From the NCBI GenBank assembly GCA_020846275.1, contig JADLEG010000250.1, positions 9,875 through 73,874 of the forward strand: a stretch of 64,000 nucleotides of DNA, given 5' to 3'. Position numbers and translations under genes: made by a program. The stretch's first letter is position 1; each line of letters starts with the position of its first letter. This DNA comes from Alphaproteobacteria bacterium (GTDB lineage: Bacteria; Pseudomonadota; Alphaproteobacteria; JAEULC01). Below are positions 4,108-33,921 of this stretch, piece by piece. The notes under the pieces were generated by a model. It saw nothing but the letters and a program-made list of their open reading frames with translations. It did not search any database and was not told the DNA's origin.

Positions 4108-5802
4108 CTAGTCGACGCCCCCGGTCGGGATCGGAAATACGACCTTTAGACAAAAATCGGCGGGACGCCTGGCGAGTTCCAGTTTGCCGCCAAGCTGCTG
4201 AACGAACCCCCGGACAAGGGTCTGGCTCAAGCCGTCCGAATCGGACAGCAAGGGTCGCGTCTCGCTGCGTATCAAAAGCTCTCCGCGGCCTTCGGGATGC
4301 AGCAGCAGTTCGATCCGCAGACTGCATCCATGCGCCGCGGCCGGTTCCGGATTCAAGCAATTGATGACGATCTCCGCGATCATCAACCCCAGCGGCCCAG
4401 CTTGGTCCGTGGACAGCTCCATCGGCGGCGCGATGATATCGATGCTGACGAGGTCACGGTCCTCGTCGTCAGCCATCCCGGCGAGTTGCGTCACCAGTTC
4501 GTTCAGGAACGATTGGATCTCGATCGCCCGCACCTCCTGGCGCCGATACATGTGCTGGTGCAGCAGCATCAGCGCGACGATGCGCTCCCGCGCGACATGG
4601 ATCGCCGAACGGGCCACGGGGTGGCGGATGCGATGCGCCTGAAGGCTGAGCATCGACGAGACGATCTGTAGGTTGTTCTTGACGCGATGATGGATCTCGT
4701 GGACGAGCTGGTCGCGCTGGGTCAGAAGCTCCTTCAGCTTCACTTCGCGGTCGGTCACCGTTTCCGTCACCTCGACAAAGCGCCTGGCCAGCCGGCGCAG
4801 TTCGGCCGGCATCGCCGGCAGACCGGGCGGGGGTGTGAACGGCACCTCTGACCCGCCATAGGAGCGGAACGCGTTTCCCAGCATCCGCAAAGGCTTCAGA
4901 ACGGAATAGTGGGCGCCAAAGGTGACGACCAGGACGCTGAGCCCCAGCAGCAGCACGATCTGCGTCAGGCGGAAGGCGAAGTCGGCATCGGCATGGCTGA
5001 TCGTGGGGCTGGCCGGCAAGGCGGCCATGAGCAGAAGGGAATCCGTCAATGGACGCACGGCATAGAAGACCTGTTCGCCGCTCTGGGTCCCGCTCTCGAA
5101 CACGGAATCGGTTCTCGCTGTCGACAGGCCACCGGCGACGGGCTGGGGCAGCAGCTCATCGCCGCCGACGATGTTCACGGCCCGGTCGCCGCCCCGCGGC
5201 AGGATCCACACGGCGCTACCTTCCGGCATGCGGCCATATCCGGGCATGCTGGCAAACGCCGCCACGGGCATCGTGGCGCCGACGGTGGCGACGATCCCAT
5301 CGTTGCCCGCAATGGGCAGCCCCGCCAACAAGGCGCCTCGGGATTCCGGGAATTCCACAGTGGTGAGCGCCACGGAGAAGCCGCCCGTGGTCTTGACCGA
5401 TTCGAAAAGCGCCGACGGGCTGAAGCCGCCGCCGCTGCGCCCGGTGCTGCACTTGAGATGGCCGATCTGGTCGAGCAGGAAGAAACCGCCGAAATACTTT
5501 CCGGTAGAGACGATCTTCTCGATCAGGCTGCGGTCGCAGGCAGGGGACGACGCCGAAGCGACTTGTGGGGCAAGCGCGGTCAGAAGTTGCTGCGTCGCCG
5601 CCAGGACTGTGGCCTGCTCGCGCAGCACGGCGTCGGCCAGCATGGCGACCACGCGGCGGCCTGCCGCCAAATCGGCTTCGCGCCGGTTGACCGCGTTCGA
5701 TATTGCAGCCACGACAACCGGAATCGTCACCAGTATCAGCAGGAGGACGAGACGGACCCTGACCGATAGGCGACCGACCCACCGCGGCTTCAAAGCACCC
5801 AC
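4108..5802 (-). CDS. Membrane sensor histidine kinase-like protein (HisKA_2) with degenerate ATP-binding domain
   Basis: Two TMs, periplasmic Cache-like and HAMP-like regions, H-box EIHHRVKNNLQ; G1 box replaced by IRSETRP. Confidence 0.85.
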   Translation of the reverse strand: MGALKPRWVGRLSVRVRLVLLLILVTIPVVVAAISNAVNRREADLAAGRRVVAMLADAVLREQATVLAATQQLLTALAPQVASASSPACDRSLIEKIVSTGKYFGGFFLLDQIGHLKCSTGRSGGGFSPSALFESVKTTGGFSVALTTVEFPESRGALLAGLPIAGNDGIVATVGATMPVAAFASMPGYGRMPEGSAVWILPRGGDRAVNIVGGDELLPQPVAGGLSTARTDSVFESGTQSGEQVFYAVRPLTDSLLLMAALPASPTISHADADFAFRLTQIVLLLGLSVLVVTFGAHYSVLKPLRMLGNAFRSYGGSEVPFTPPPGLPAMPAELRRLARRFVEVTETVTDREVKLKELLTQRDQLVHEIHHRVKNNLQIVSSMLSLQAHRIRHPVARSAIHVARERIVALMLLHQHMYRRQEVRAIEIQSFLNELVTQLAGMADDEDRDLVSIDIIAPPMELSTDQAGPLGLMIAEIVINCLNPEPAAAHGCSLRIELLLHPEGRGELLIRSETRPLLSDSDGLSQTLVRGFVQQLGGKLELARRPADFCLKVVFPIPTGGVD

Positions 5803-5907
5803 CGTGTTATCCCAGCCCGTACGAGGAAGCGCGGCAGGACGATTTTTCGCTGACCGATCCGCCTAGGACCGCCCCGCGCATGAGCGACGCCTGCGCATTC
5901 CAGCCGC

Positions 5908-6050
5908 CTAGTGTCCCGATTCCGAGGTTCGTCAGTGTTTGCGACGAAAAGGACACGAGCAACTATTTGAGTCTAGTGCCCCTTTGGAACCCGAAGTTCG
6001 CCTCCGGTCTTGCGATCAAGCGAAGGCGAACTTCGGGTTCGGGGCACTAG
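5908..6050. repeat. CTAG-bounded palindromic mosaic repeat, copy 1 (two-unit, 24-nt internal deletion)
   Basis: Near-identical to 33497-33664; CTAG at 5908, 5973 and 6047; arms GAACCCGAAGTTCGCC/GGCGAACTTCGGGTTC. Confidence 0.9.
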
Positions 6051-6274
6051 TTATCCTTGATCTTCTTGTCGTCGATCAACTGGAGGAGCTCGTCGGGAAC
6101 GGGCTCGTGCGCCACGTCCGAGAACATGTCGCGCAACTCCCGTTTCAGCCACAGATCGAACGCCGTCGACGTCTTGTCAGCACGCCTCGCCGGTTTCGGT
6201 GCCTGCCGCGCCTGCGCGCCGCCGGCAGCCTTCCTGGCGCTGTCGGCGGGTCGATCCGTGGGTCGTTTTGCCAT
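6047..6274 (-). CDS. nepR: NepR anti-sigma factor
   Basis: Low-complexity N-terminus then FDLWLKRELRDMFSDVAHEPVPDELLQLID; adjacent to ecfG/phyR. Confidence 0.88.
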   Translation of the reverse strand: MAKRPTDRPADSARKAAGGAQARQAPKPARRADKTSTAFDLWLKRELRDMFSDVAHEPVPDELLQLIDDKKIKDN

Positions 6275-10405: not shown

Positions 10406-12088
10406 TTGGAACTGGGCCTCGCAATGGAACCTGCCGAGGCTGACGCGGCGACGGCCACCCAGGCCGGATTTCCTGCGTTGATGCGTTCGACACAGGCAAT
10501 CGTGCTGGTCAGCGTCATCGTCATCCTCGTCTCGGTGTCGATGTTCGTGGTCTACGAGGCTGCAAACCGCCGCAGCCGGGCCAGCGAAGCGCGGCAGGTG
10601 ATCTCCAGCATTTCGCTGATGCTTGCCGAGGAGGTCGGCCGCATTCTGGATGTCGCCAACCTGGTGGCAGGGCACGCCATCGAGATCAGCCGCAATCGCA
10701 GCTGGGACGATATCGAGCAATCGCGCGCGATCTTCGACGAGCTCGCCCGGCTGGACCGCGCCTACAGCTTCATCTCCGCCATCTGGCTGACCGATGCTTC
10801 AGGCATGCCGCGCCAATCGACGCGCTCCTTCCCGCCGCCGCACGTGAGCGTTGCCGACCGCGAGCACTTCAAGGTCCAGCGAGAAGCCGACCGGGGTCCT
10901 TTCGTCAGTCCTTTGGTCCGCAGCCGGGTACGGACCGAAGCAAACATCGTGATGAGCCGCCGTATCCAGGACACGTCCGGCGGCTTTCAGGGAGTCGCGC
11001 TCGTCGTCCTCGATCCGCAGTATTTCCTGCGTCTCTATCGGGAAATCCAGGTCGAGTATCCGGTCGCGATCGAGGTCGTCCGGTTCGACCGGTCGATCCT
11101 GCTGCGCGCTCCGACAGCCGCGGTGGAAGAGTCGCTCGACGCCGTGAAATCGACGGGACCGGCCCTCGAAGCAACCAGCGCCGCCAGCGGGCTTTTCGCT
11201 GCAAAGGAACCCGGCGAGAGCGGCGAGCGGATGCAGGCCTATCGCCGGGTCGAGGGGTTCCCGTTGTATGTTGTCGTCAGCGTCCTCAACGCCGATGTGG
11301 CGCAAAGCTGGCTGAGCGCAATGTATGTACATGGAGGGTTTGCCGCCCTGGGCCTGGTGGCAGCATTGGCTGCTCTCGCCCTAGCCCATGCCTATGGCCG
11401 GCGAGAGCAGCAGACATTGCGCGATATCCGCGGCCTGAATGCCTCACTGGAAATGCGGGTGAAGGAACGCACGCAGGCGCTTGAGCACTTGCTGCAGGAA
11501 GTCACCCATCGCGTGAAGAACAGCCTTCAACTCACGGCCAGCCTGCTGCGCCTGCAGCAGAACAACGTGCGGGACCAGCCGACACGCGAATACCTGTCGG
11601 ATGCGCAGACGCGCGTGCTGACCATCGCCCGGCTGCATGAGCATCTGTACCAGGCAGGAAATTTCCGCCAGGTCGAGTTGAAGCGTTATCTCGGGACGAT
11701 CTGCGCCGATGTAGGCGGCGCGTTGCCGGGTCACCAGATCAGCTTCAAGAGCAGTTTCGGTTCAGCCCTGGTGCCGGTCGATCTCGCCATCCCCATTGCC
11801 CTCGTGCTGACCGAGCTGCTGACAAACGCCATGAAGCATGCGTTCAGCGGCGATGCCGGCAGCGTGGCGGTGTCGCTCGATGGCGATGGCGAAAGCGGCA
11901 GGCTGGAGGTGGCCGACAATGGCCGCGGCCTGCCCTTGGACTTCGATCTGCACCAGGCGCAGGGCCTGGGCATGCGGATCGTGCTGGGCTTGGTCAAACA
12001 AGCCAACGGCGAAATCTCTGTCGATTCCGGTCAGACGGGCACGCGATTTGAAGTGCGCTTTCCCTTGTCTGGCGGCGGCGGTCCATAG
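10406..12088 (+). CDS. Membrane sensor histidine kinase (Cache domain, HisKA_2); start probably somewhat later
   Basis: TM-Cache-TM; EVTHRVKNSLQ, ELLTNAMKHAF, VADNGRG, GLGMRIV intact. Confidence 0.9.
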   Translation: MELGLAMEPAEADAATATQAGFPALMRSTQAIVLVSVIVILVSVSMFVVYEAANRRSRASEARQVISSISLMLAEEVGRILDVANLVAGHAIEISRNRSWDDIEQSRAIFDELARLDRAYSFISAIWLTDASGMPRQSTRSFPPPHVSVADREHFKVQREADRGPFVSPLVRSRVRTEANIVMSRRIQDTSGGFQGVALVVLDPQYFLRLYREIQVEYPVAIEVVRFDRSILLRAPTAAVEESLDAVKSTGPALEATSAASGLFAAKEPGESGERMQAYRRVEGFPLYVVVSVLNADVAQSWLSAMYVHGGFAALGLVAALAALALAHAYGRREQQTLRDIRGLNASLEMRVKERTQALEHLLQEVTHRVKNSLQLTASLLRLQQNNVRDQPTREYLSDAQTRVLTIARLHEHLYQAGNFRQVELKRYLGTICADVGGALPGHQISFKSSFGSALVPVDLAIPIALVLTELLTNAMKHAFSGDAGSVAVSLDGDGESGRLEVADNGRGLPLDFDLHQAQGLGMRIVLGLVKQANGEISVDSGQTGTRFEVRFPLSGGGGP

Positions 12089-12102: not shown

Positions 12103-12176
12103 CTAGTACCTCGAACCCGAAGTTCGCCATCGCTTGATCGCAAGACCGGAGACGAACTTCGGAATTGGGACACTAG
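12103..12176. repeat. CTAG-bounded palindromic repeat, copy 2 (single hybrid unit, inverted)
   Basis: Reverse complement = unit-A left arm + unit-B loop + unit-B right arm; CTAG at both ends. Confidence 0.88.
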
Positions 12177-12553
12177 CGGCGCCGCAGCATGCCCATCAAC
12201 AACCCCGCGCCGAGCAGCGCGATCGTGGCGGGGTTGAGGTTTCGCAGCACCGTGCCGATCTGCTGCGCGAGGATTTCCGGCGATTCGAGATCCGCGGCGA
12301 GACATTGCTGCGGCGTGGCGCCGATGGCGGGTCCGACCGACGCGGCAGCCGCTGCAGGCCGGTTCAGGAGAGCCGCCAGCAGCGTGACCATACCGGCAAT
12401 GCCCATCAATGCCAGCCCAACCAGCAGCGCGGACATGCTGGGCGAGAGGCGAAGCTCGACGAGCGCTAGATAGCAGGCGGAGATCAGGAAGCCGGCGCCC
12501 ACCACCGCCAGCGCGGCGATCACCGCCCCGGCGACGACGCGGGCGCGCCACAT
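12173..12553 (-). CDS. Membrane protein, YqjE/phage-holin-like superfamily type
   Basis: Hydrophobic helices; directly follows DUF883 gene as in yqjD-yqjE-like operons. Confidence 0.6.
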   Translation of the reverse strand: MWRARVVAGAVIAALAVVGAGFLISACYLALVELRLSPSMSALLVGLALMGIAGMVTLLAALLNRPAAAAASVGPAIGATPQQCLAADLESPEILAQQIGTVLRNLNPATIALLGAGLLMGMLRRR

Positions 12554-32157: not shown

Positions 32158-32195
32158 CGTTGCCTGCGTGCAGCGGCGGGGAAGTGGGGATCGGG

Positions 32196-33500
32196 ATGGA
32201 CGCGACGCCGAACATCGACGCGGCAGCCGATCAGCCGGCTGAACCAGACCAGCCGGACAAGCGCAGCTTCCTTGCCATGCTCGGCCCCGGGCTTGTCACC
32301 GGCGCCGCGGACGATGATCCCAGCGGCATTGCAACCTACAGCCAGGTCGGCGCCCAGTTCGGCTATGGCCTCTCCTGGACGTTGCTGTTCAGCTTTCCGC
32401 TGATGGCGGTGATCCAGTCCGTCAGCGCCCGGATCGGATGCGTGACGGGCTGCGGCATCGCCCAGAACCTGCGGCGCCACTACCCCGCTCCGCTGCTCTG
32501 GGTGGTAGTGTCGCTGCTGATCGTGGCCAACGTCGTCAATCTCGGCGCCGACCTTGGCGCCATGGGTGCGGCGCTCCACCTGCTCGTGGGCGGGCCGGAA
32601 CTCGCCTACACGATGCTTTTCGGACTGGCCTGCGCCCTGCTCGAGATCCTCGTCAGCTACAACCGGTATGCCGGCATCCTGAAATGGACGACGCTGTCGC
32701 TGTTCGCCTATGTGGCGGTCGCGTTCGCGGCGGGCGTTCCCTGGGGTACGGCCCTGTACCACACTTTCGTTCCGCAGATCGTCCTGGATGGGCAGCACGC
32801 CATGGCCATCGTCGCGATACTCGGTACGACCATCAGCCCCTACCTGTTCTTCTGGCAGGCGGGGCAGGAGGTAGAGGAACAGCGCAGGCGCCACGTGAAG
32901 CCGCTCTGCGTGGCACCACGCCAGGCGGGGGACGAGCTCGCCCGCATCCGCACCGACACCATTCTCGGCATGGGCGTGTCCAACCTGATCGCGCTGTTCA
33001 TCGTGTTCGCCGCCGCGGCGACGCTTAACGCCAAGGGCGTCACCGACATCCAGACCTCGGCCCAGGCCGCCGAAGCCCTTCGTCCGGTCGCGGGCGACGC
33101 GGCATTCTTCCTGTTCGCGGCGGGCATCGTCGGGACGGGGATGCTGGCGGTTCCGGTCCTGGCCGGCTCGGTGGCCTATGCCGTCAGCGAGATGTTCCGG
33201 TGGAAGGAGGGCTTGAACCGCCGGCCGCGCCAGGCCAAGGCCTTCTACGCGGTCATTGCGGCCACTACCCTCGCCGGCGTGGGGCTCAATTTCATGTCCG
33301 TCGACCCGATCAAGGCGCTCTACTGGAGCGCCGTTGTCAATGGGGTGCTGGCCGCACCGCTGATGGCGATCATGATGCTGATCGCGGTGAACCGACAGAT
33401 CATGGGGCGACTGACGCTCAGTCCCGCCATGATTATGGGCGGATGGATGGCAACGATCGCAATGGCGGCCGCCACGGTCGCGTTTGCGGTCGCGGACTAG
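32196..33500 (+). CDS. NRAMP family divalent metal cation transporter
   Basis: LGPGLVTGAADDDPSGIATYSQVGAQFGY, ILGTTISPYLFFWQ. Confidence 0.92.
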   Translation: MDATPNIDAAADQPAEPDQPDKRSFLAMLGPGLVTGAADDDPSGIATYSQVGAQFGYGLSWTLLFSFPLMAVIQSVSARIGCVTGCGIAQNLRRHYPAPLLWVVVSLLIVANVVNLGADLGAMGAALHLLVGGPELAYTMLFGLACALLEILVSYNRYAGILKWTTLSLFAYVAVAFAAGVPWGTALYHTFVPQIVLDGQHAMAIVAILGTTISPYLFFWQAGQEVEEQRRRHVKPLCVAPRQAGDELARIRTDTILGMGVSNLIALFIVFAAAATLNAKGVTDIQTSAQAAEALRPVAGDAAFFLFAAGIVGTGMLAVPVLAGSVAYAVSEMFRWKEGLNRRPRQAKAFYAVIAATTLAGVGLNFMSVDPIKALYWSAVVNGVLAAPLMAIMMLIAVNRQIMGRLTLSPAMIMGGWMATIAMAAATVAFAVAD

Positions 33501-33664
33501 TGTCCTGATTCCGAAGTTCGTCAGTGCTTGCGACGCACGCCGTACGAACTTCGGAATCGAAAAGGACACGAGCAACTATTTCAAGTCTAGTGCCCCTTTT
33601 GAACCCGAAGTTCGCCTCCGGTCTTGCGATCAAGAGAGGGCGAACTTCGGGTTCGGGGCACCAG
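33497..33664. repeat. CTAG-bounded palindromic mosaic repeat, copy 3 (complete two-unit form)
   Basis: Hairpin A (GATTCCGAAGTTCGT/ACGAACTTCGGAATC), linker, CTAG at 33587, hairpin B; right end CCAG. Confidence 0.9.
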
Positions 33665-33681
33665 GCAGTGCCGCCGCGAAC

Positions 33682-33921
33682 CTAGTGGCTGGTTCGATCC
33701 ACGGCGCCGGTGGTCCCGCTTTCCCGCGCGCAATGGGCGCAGCAGAAGGTCTTGCCGCTGGCCTCGATCCCGTGGCCGACAATCCGACACTGGCAATGCG
33801 CGCAGCGCGGCGCCAGCGCATGGATGGCGCATTCGAAGCTGTCGAAGGTCTGCGACCGCCCATCCTGGGAAATCATGAAGGCCTTGTCGTAGTCGTTTCC
33901 GCAAACCACGCAGCGTGCCAT
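33682..33921 (-). CDS. Prokaryotic metallothionein-like Cys-rich protein
   Basis: CVVCGNDYDKAF..TFDSFECAIHALAPRCAHCQCRIVGHG..FCCAHCA; GGGAGG RBS. Confidence 0.88.
   Translation of the reverse strand: MARCVVCGNDYDKAFMISQDGRSQTFDSFECAIHALAPRCAHCQCRIVGHGIEASGKTFCCAHCARESGTTGAVDRTSH

Follow-up and report, generated by a model that had tools for sequence, protein, structure and literature searches.

RUP of Streptococcus pneumoniae and the Correia elements of Neisseria are MITEs whose spread has been attributed to IS630-type mobilisation; both are short, non-coding, hairpin-forming, multi-copy and targeted to TA, and they are often co-transcribed with their neighbours. Intergenic palindromes of another kind, the REP/BIME sequences of enterobacteria, lie at the 3′ ends of genes and can stabilise the upstream mRNA, and REPs carry the tetranucleotide GTAG and are processed by RAYT. 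IS630 of Shigella sonnei and ISY100, both of the Tc1/mariner superfamily, are autonomous elements of ~1.1 kb with simple terminal repeats that insert at TA and duplicate it; according to PMC2170065, IS630 favours the TA in 5′-CTAG-3′ (with the Tenzen references therein), and TA is duplicated on insertion of ISY100. The transposase gene of IS870 from Agrobacterium vitis takes its stop codon from the flanking TAG (Fournier 1993, as related in PMC13630536), and IS870 and the IS870-like IS630-family copies, such as that on plasmid pKOB2, have the terminal sequence CTAG-TGTCCyGAnTCyGAAGTT, the same as that of the elements described here. MITEPsy1 of Pseudomonas syringae, which is IS5-derived, enters CTAG or YTAA, making TAG stops possible targets for it as well, and it generates a 4-nt duplication and has IS5-type termini (GGAAGGT...) (PMC3189936).

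We compared with these systems three copies of a repeat found in 64 kb of alphaproteobacterial DNA, the whole of which is referred to below as the window. The window elements share the CTAG flanks of the IS870-like insertion sequences, and in both the target TAG is tied to a stop codon. They differ from the IS870-like copies in being 74-170 bp long and non-coding, in having ends that are full palindromes (terminal repeat, loop, inverted terminal repeat) and in sharing the stop codon with a host gene, whereas the insertion sequence shares it with its transposase gene. Unlike IS630 and ISY100, they are neither autonomous nor ~1.1 kb long nor bounded by simple terminal repeats; we infer for them the same duplication of TA. 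RUP and the Correia elements resemble the window elements in all the general properties listed above, but to our knowledge they have other sequences and hosts and show neither the two-palindrome dimer architecture nor strict CTAG flanks. The arms of the window elements are IS630 terminal repeats, in contrast to REP/BIME, and MITEPsy1 belongs to another transposase family.

The repeat is a palindromic, CTAG-bounded module of ~76 bp (74-79 bp), usually present as a two-hairpin dimer of ~170 bp (about 165-174 bp). Each module opens with CTAG and TGyCCC, followed by GAnyCCGAAGTTCG, with an optional bulge of 3-4 nt before the latter on one arm; a loop of 20-30 nt then leads to the complementary arm and the closing CTAG. 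Pairing between the arms extends over at least 24 nt, the consensus of the outer arm is CTAG-TGTCCyGAnTCCGAAGTTCG, and the elements contain no conserved ORF. The initial annotation of this DNA had claimed that all three copies use their terminal CTAG as the TAG stop codon of a gene, and this is what the sequence reads: the tetranucleotides at 6047-6050, 12173-12176 and 33497-33500 are each the end of a repeat copy and each contain a TAG stop. The genes that stop there are nepR (copy 1), a 126-aa membrane-like ORF (copy 2) and an Nramp gene (copy 3). The right junction of copy 1 is GGGGCA-CTAG-TTATCC on the plus strand, the right junction of copy 2 is GGGACA-CTAG-CGGCGC, and the left junction of copy 3 is GCGGA-CTAG-TGTCC, with the stop shared at one outer end only in each insertion.

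Copies 1 and 3 are two-module dimers (5908-6050 and 33497-33664, respectively), and copy 2 consists of one hybrid module only. The outer module of copy 1, A′ (5908-5959), is 89% identical to 33492-33535 and has lost ~24 nt of its right arm after position 5946; its inner boundary tetranucleotide has decayed and is now CGAG. The segment missing from it, CACGCCGTACGAACTTCGGAATC, is present in contigs of other copies, seen as loose ends at 5946. The linker CAACTATTTGAGT (5960-5972), which is the conserved 12-14 nt joint between dimer modules, leads into module B (5973-6050), a 78-bp palindrome of the form CTAG-TGCCCC..CCGAAGTTCG..loop..CGAACTTCGG..GGGGCA-CTAG. Copy 2 (12103-12176) is 74 bp long with CTAG at both ends, and its two arms are of different subtypes. 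In copy 3, module A (33497-33572) is complete except that its inner boundary has likewise decayed to CGAG, the linker CAACTATTTCAAGT (33573-33586) is 14 nt long, and module B (33587-33664) is 95% identical to copy 1, with its outer end decayed from CTAG to CCAG.

The anti-sigma factor gene nepR lies on the minus strand at 6047-6274 (ORF 6047-6274/6379), and its TAG is the plus-strand CTA at 6047-6049, within the terminal CTAG of the element. Its product matches Pfam PF18557 at 30.2 bits against a cut-off of 25.7, and the NCBIfam NepR match is weak. The 126-aa ORF (12173-12553, minus strand) has its TAG at 12173-12175 in the terminal CTAG of copy 2 and is convergent with a histidine kinase gene at 10502-12088. 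It is hydrophobic, with the look of a membrane protein, and has coding potential; family searches with it returned no match, and its status as a real gene is plausible but not proven. The third gene encodes an Nramp/MntH-type transporter (32184-33500, plus strand; Pfam Nramp, E=3e-86), and its TAG at 33498-33500 lies in the left CTAG of copy 3. Convergent with it is a putative gene on the minus strand (33682-33921), a 79-aa Cys-rich ORF with CxxC motifs and a metal-binding look, for which family searches returned no match. The stop codon of this ORF is a further C-TAG (33682-33685), located 18 nt past the copy 3 element.

The family is widespread in Alphaproteobacteria. A pattern scan for CCGAAGTTCG-N20-40-CGAACTTCGG, with one genome sampled per species, gave at least 119 loci, and the matches listed came from Xanthobacteraceae, Hyphomicrobiaceae, Caulobacteraceae, Parvularculaceae and other Alphaproteobacteria. 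In these loci, at least 153 modules are intact from CTAG to CTAG, and their lengths fall within a narrow range of 75-79 bp; among the matches listed, the majority of modules sit in dimers, and the dimer linker form CAAnnTATnGATT recurs across many genomes. The element is thus both multi-copy and dispersed, as is also indicated by a word depth 10-50x that of its flanks in metagenomes. This elevated depth was observed in activated-sludge metagenome runs over 5741-6222 and 33463-33666, while copy 2, the hybrid module, was hardly elevated in the same type of sample, indicating that modules of the A and B types are very abundant in the community. Across the 64-kb window, no Rfam family matched at its gathering score, and the repeat family is undescribed in the literature searched.

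Several loci carry unusual arrangements of the module. At L113 (6012-6244) and L107 (4100-4599), adjoining modules have one CTAG in common and form arrays of up to six modules, which is consistent with new copies entering the terminal CTAG of resident copies. A mini-palindrome of ~40 nt at L082 (~1850-1900), CTAG-AGCGCATCCCGATT-loop-AATCGGGACGCGCT-CTAG, has the appearance of a deletion derivative in which only the outer arms of a module are left. On plasmid p2 of Roseomonas mucosa (L120, 2001-2031), a solo element arm, CTAGTGTCCCGAATCTGAAGTTCG, is present with no partner arm, and a CDS annotated by PGAP, and hence independently of our own gene calls, stops within the CTAG of this arm. At L007 (6724-7990), a host gene encoding a secreted, TPR/CpoB-like protein of 334 aa lies between two inverted copies of a related dimer; these have perfect 24-nt ends, mimicking a composite transposon, and the stop codon of the host gene is in an element CTAG. 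The segment 6820-7973 of this locus was considered as a parent insertion sequence and rejected, being in fact the host TPR gene between two inverted MITEs.

A candidate parent was found by searching plasmids with the 35-nt outer (alpha) arm, which matched 21/22 nt on Komagataeibacter oboediens pKOB2, at the end of a gene that PGAP annotates as an IS630-family transposase. This was the sole success of the plasmid searches, as BLAST with the whole dimer gave nothing useful and the arm of the beta module gave nothing. The pKOB2 insertion sequence (L141, 2501-3654) is 1154 bp long with CTAG on both flanks and ends CTAG-TGTCCCGATTCTGAAGTTTCG and CTAG-TGTCCTGATCGAGAAGTTTAT, and it encodes a product of 366 aa with DDE_3 and HTH domains. 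Relatives of this transposase were detected by tblastn on 729 plasmid records, and all four of those that were opened (one from Sinorhizobium, two from Sphingobium and one from Acidovorax) are bounded by CTAG. The insertion sequences and the MITE arms have in common TGTCCy/TCACCT-GAnTCyGAAGTTCG, for example TCACCTGAATCCGAAGTTCGG, and the core GAnTCyGAAGTTCG is common to the MITE arms and the Sphingobium and Acidovorax insertion sequences. For three copies, those of K. oboediens, S. indicum and Acidovorax (L141, L144 and L146), comparison with the annotation showed that the transposase ORF stops at the TAG supplied by the CTAG flank, in agreement with IS870. These three IS630-family insertion sequences are without a stop codon of their own. 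The transposase of the S. meliloti copy (L143) stops at an internal TGA, 22 nt before the end of the insertion sequence, and in the fifth copy the transposase annotation is fragmented.

The arms match the ends of IS630-family insertion sequences and those insertion sequences are flanked by CTAG, which together identify the repeat as an IS630-type MITE that would insert at the TA in CTAG. On the strength of these sequence comparisons, the window repeats are very probably non-autonomous MITEs of an IS870-like branch of the IS630/Tc1-mariner family. The family belongs to a kind that is already known, the IS630-type MITE. No IS630 copy or transposase was found in the 64-kb window or among the at least 119 loci, including by a search for terminal-repeat pairs.

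The ends of the modules were used to distinguish possible modes of insertion. When CTAG is present at both ends, duplications of 2 bp (TA) and 4 bp (CTAG) are indistinguishable, and an IS5-type transposase duplicating the whole 4-bp CTAG (YTAR), as for MITEPsy1, would leave elements identical in appearance to those of the TA model; a 4-nt duplication is indeed made by IS5-derived MITEs when they enter CTAG or YTAA (PMC3189936). Boundaries were anchored for 120 modules; CTAG is intact on both sides in 68 of these and 30 have one variant end, and 7-8 of the one-ended variants differ only at the outermost base (GTAG..CTAG, CTAG..CTAA). Direct, non-palindromic pairs of the same 4-bp variant (GTAG..GTAG, CTAA..CTAA) were found in none of the 120. 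As read from these end sequences, the one-sided outer-base variants favour a duplication of TA in an xTAy target over a 4-bp duplication. These counts, and arms that match the ends of the IS630 family and not those of IS5, make an IS5-type transposase a highly improbable source of the repeats.

Ten of the modules have mirror-image end variants (L022, L025, L039, L044, L051, L052, L061, L063, L075 and L086), where independent mutation of the two ends would give ~1. The types observed are CCAG..CTGG, CTGG..CCAG, CTCG..CGAG and GTAG..CTAC, in all of which the pairing of the stem is kept, and the loci come from genomes depleted in CTAG (observed/expected 0.11 vs 0.30). Such variants fall outside the prediction of a pure target-duplication model. 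Parallel loss of CTAG together with maintenance of the stem in CTAG-avoiding genomes can explain them, though not fully, and they do not speak against transposition. Mirror-symmetric ends, together with palindromic modules that carry a conserved boundary tetranucleotide and occur in doublets, are also what might be seen in a REP/REPIN-like palindrome processed by an enzyme that acts on single-stranded DNA, whether of the RAYT type or another, in which case the tetranucleotide would be part of the element and not a target duplication. We consider this scarcely credible given that the arms are IS630 terminal repeats, that the tetranucleotide is CTAG (at ~85% of module ends) and not GTAG, and that the symmetric variants occur only in CTAG-poor genomes; an unsystematic look at the 64-kb window also noticed no RAYT gene.

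An exact empty site was not found. Logan contigs encoding the identical sigma factor and extending to the nepR stop end within the element in every case, and no joint skipping a copy was detected in eight metagenome runs. An all-vs-all BLAST of the flanks yielded one empty orthologous intergenic region (L044 vs L039), in which CTAG is present, at an identity of only 71%.

The IS630-type reading suggests a simple origin for the coincidence of element ends and stop codons. Each module of ~76 bp is made of two inverted copies of the terminal repeat of the insertion sequence around a short loop, and two modules with a linker of 12-14 nt make up the usual unit of ~170 bp. A transposase acting in trans, for which we infer a source within this genome, would insert the unit at the TA of 5′-CTAG-3′ with duplication of TA and would recreate CTAG at both ends, as expected from the behaviour of the family. 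CTAG is palindromic and offers a TAG on both strands; in GC-rich genomes it is rare and survives mostly outside gene interiors, where a large share of the sites are C+TAG stops. Insertions in gene interiors would be lost through purifying selection, and insertions at stops, which would leave the protein unchanged, would persist, with the result that element ends would come to double as stop codons.

In the window, CTAG is scarce, as the initial annotation had stated for GC-rich DNA, with 41 sites in 64 kb compared to 67 expected from dinucleotide shuffles. Seven of these sites are element-borne, and the other 34 comprise 14 stops, 12 gene-interior sites and 8 other intergenic sites. Outside gene interiors, 14 of the 22 non-element sites (~64%) are thus on stops, which gives a probability of ~0.26 for three copies out of three under the assumption of insertion at CTAG and survival only outside gene interiors. 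A random intergenic position adjoins a stop ~0.4% of the time. Finding all three copies on stops is therefore unsurprising given CTAG targeting and very unlikely under random intergenic placement. Stop usage in the window is itself unusual, with 31 TAG, 30 TGA and only 1 TAA among 62 called genes; the TAG share of stops in the pooled loci of other Alphaproteobacteria is 32%. A C precedes 17 of the 32 window TAG stops (the 31 called plus that of nepR).

The initial annotation had proposed that C-TAG stops would be a safe target for insertion, to be checked by comparing element ends with all CTAG sites for their overlap with stops. Such a comparison was made for 52 complete ('strict') elements from other genomes, located away from locus edges, among the matches listed. 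An outer end was on a stop in 17 of the 52 (33%), compared to 57 (27%) of the 208 CTAGs that formed the background outside gene interiors (Fisher p=0.49), a comparison whose background classes are noisy, with genes called by a simple home-made codon-bias caller and ~23% of the pooled DNA uncalled. The safe-target proposal thus holds in that the stop is regenerated and the insertion tolerated, but a special preference for stops is not borne out. When all CTAGs, including those in gene interiors, were taken as the background, the same 52 elements showed a two-fold excess on stops (p=0.04), which is what purifying selection would produce. The coincidence with stops is to be expected from a known target preference, as its by-product, and calls for no new mechanism.

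A competing explanation is that the elements are kept by the host at stop codons, where the hairpin at the 3′ end would stabilise the mRNA, act in part as a terminator or insulate adjacent or convergent genes from each other, setting for example the ratio of nepR to the downstream kinase. The absence of an overall enrichment over available CTAGs speaks against this, as do the two-thirds of copies that lie away from stops and the lack of an orientation bias, since dimers are oriented sense to the stop-sharing gene in 7 cases and antisense in 6. More favourable to host use is the subset with both CTAG ends intact, in which 14 of 30 elements (47%) are on stops compared to the 27% background (p=0.053). 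This difference may reflect mild retention at stops or survivorship, and the subset is biased because a stop codon shields its CTAG from decay. The dimer at L068 (4714-4880) exactly fills the gap between two convergent genes, each of which stops in one of the outer CTAGs of the dimer; before the insertion, the stops of the two genes must have overlapped in a single CTAG.

The nepR locus bears on host use in both directions. Of 10 population contigs, 7 extend as far as the nepR stop (the remaining three end before it), and all of these 7 carry the insertion, as would be expected if the host made use of it. The sigma-nepR-kinase arrangement is also found in four relatives whose sigma factor is 74-82% identical, and in all four the element is absent from nepR, which argues against such a use. 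The NepR proteins of these relatives end at most ~5 residues from the end of the window NepR; their nepR loci are too diverged to reveal the exact target. With the element absent and the protein ends nearly equal, the insertion is lineage-specific and has not remodelled the protein. The kinase gene downstream of nepR (4108-5793, minus strand) matches only HisKA_2/HWE_HK in Pfam, with no HATPase_c at E<0.01, and its orthologue in L133 has an HATPase_c_2 match. The label 'pseudokinase' given to this gene in the initial annotation may be right.

The hairpins themselves are very stable. RNA folding of the window modules gave -32 to -59 kcal/mol with z of about -5 to -11 and the terminal CUAGs paired into the stem; the values are -59.3 kcal/mol for module B of copy 1 (z=-11.4), -31.9 kcal/mol for copy 2 (z=-4.95), and -40.1 and -50.4 kcal/mol for modules A and B of copy 3. 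With the terminal CUAG paired at the foot of a ~30-bp stem, a ribosome would have to open the hairpin before it could read the stop. Stability of this order, a stop codon located in the stem base itself, and end changes that are compensatory are each in keeping with the host-use explanation. In a terminator scan of both strands at copies 1 and 3, no hairpin had a U-tract behind it, the flanks 3′ of the stems being CTAGTTATCC, CTAGACTCAA and CCAGGCAGTG; this counts against the explanation, and a Rho-independent terminator was rejected for these two copies on the same ground. Metatranscriptome contigs do carry element sequence, and one of them spans module B into the downstream small ORF, as would suit a transcribed and functional hairpin, but these contigs are sparse, directionless, broken at the repeats and possibly in part derived from DNA, and they hold no information on 3′ ends. 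Taking the two sides together, retention of the elements by the host for a role of their hairpins at stops is unlikely.

A narrower version of this idea, in which copies at C-TAG stops would be kept as translation-coupled 3′-end structures tuning mRNA stability or read-through, as from nepR to the HWE kinase gene, and in which selection on the stem would be the source of the mirror changes at module ends in CTAG-poor genomes, seems to us very unlikely. Under the IS630-type reading, a hairpin at the start of the 3′ UTR may still affect mRNA decay or read-through as a side effect. The uncoupling of nepR from the kinase by copy 1, and the insulation of convergent genes by copies 2 and 3, are possible but unsupported. 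The very stable hairpin between nepR and the HWE kinase gene, which are genes of the general stress response, is a candidate for a polarity effect, a suggestion that is reasonable but unproven.

The main value of this family lies in annotation, as it accounts for many of the CTAG-bounded hairpins at gene ends and provides a warning against calling such hairpins terminators, sRNAs or operators. Element ends would come to lie on stop codons through three factors acting together, namely the preference of the transposase for TA in CTAG, the scarcity of this tetranucleotide and purifying selection, and by the same logic of the CTAG target, the parent insertion sequence takes its own stop codon from the site into which it inserts.
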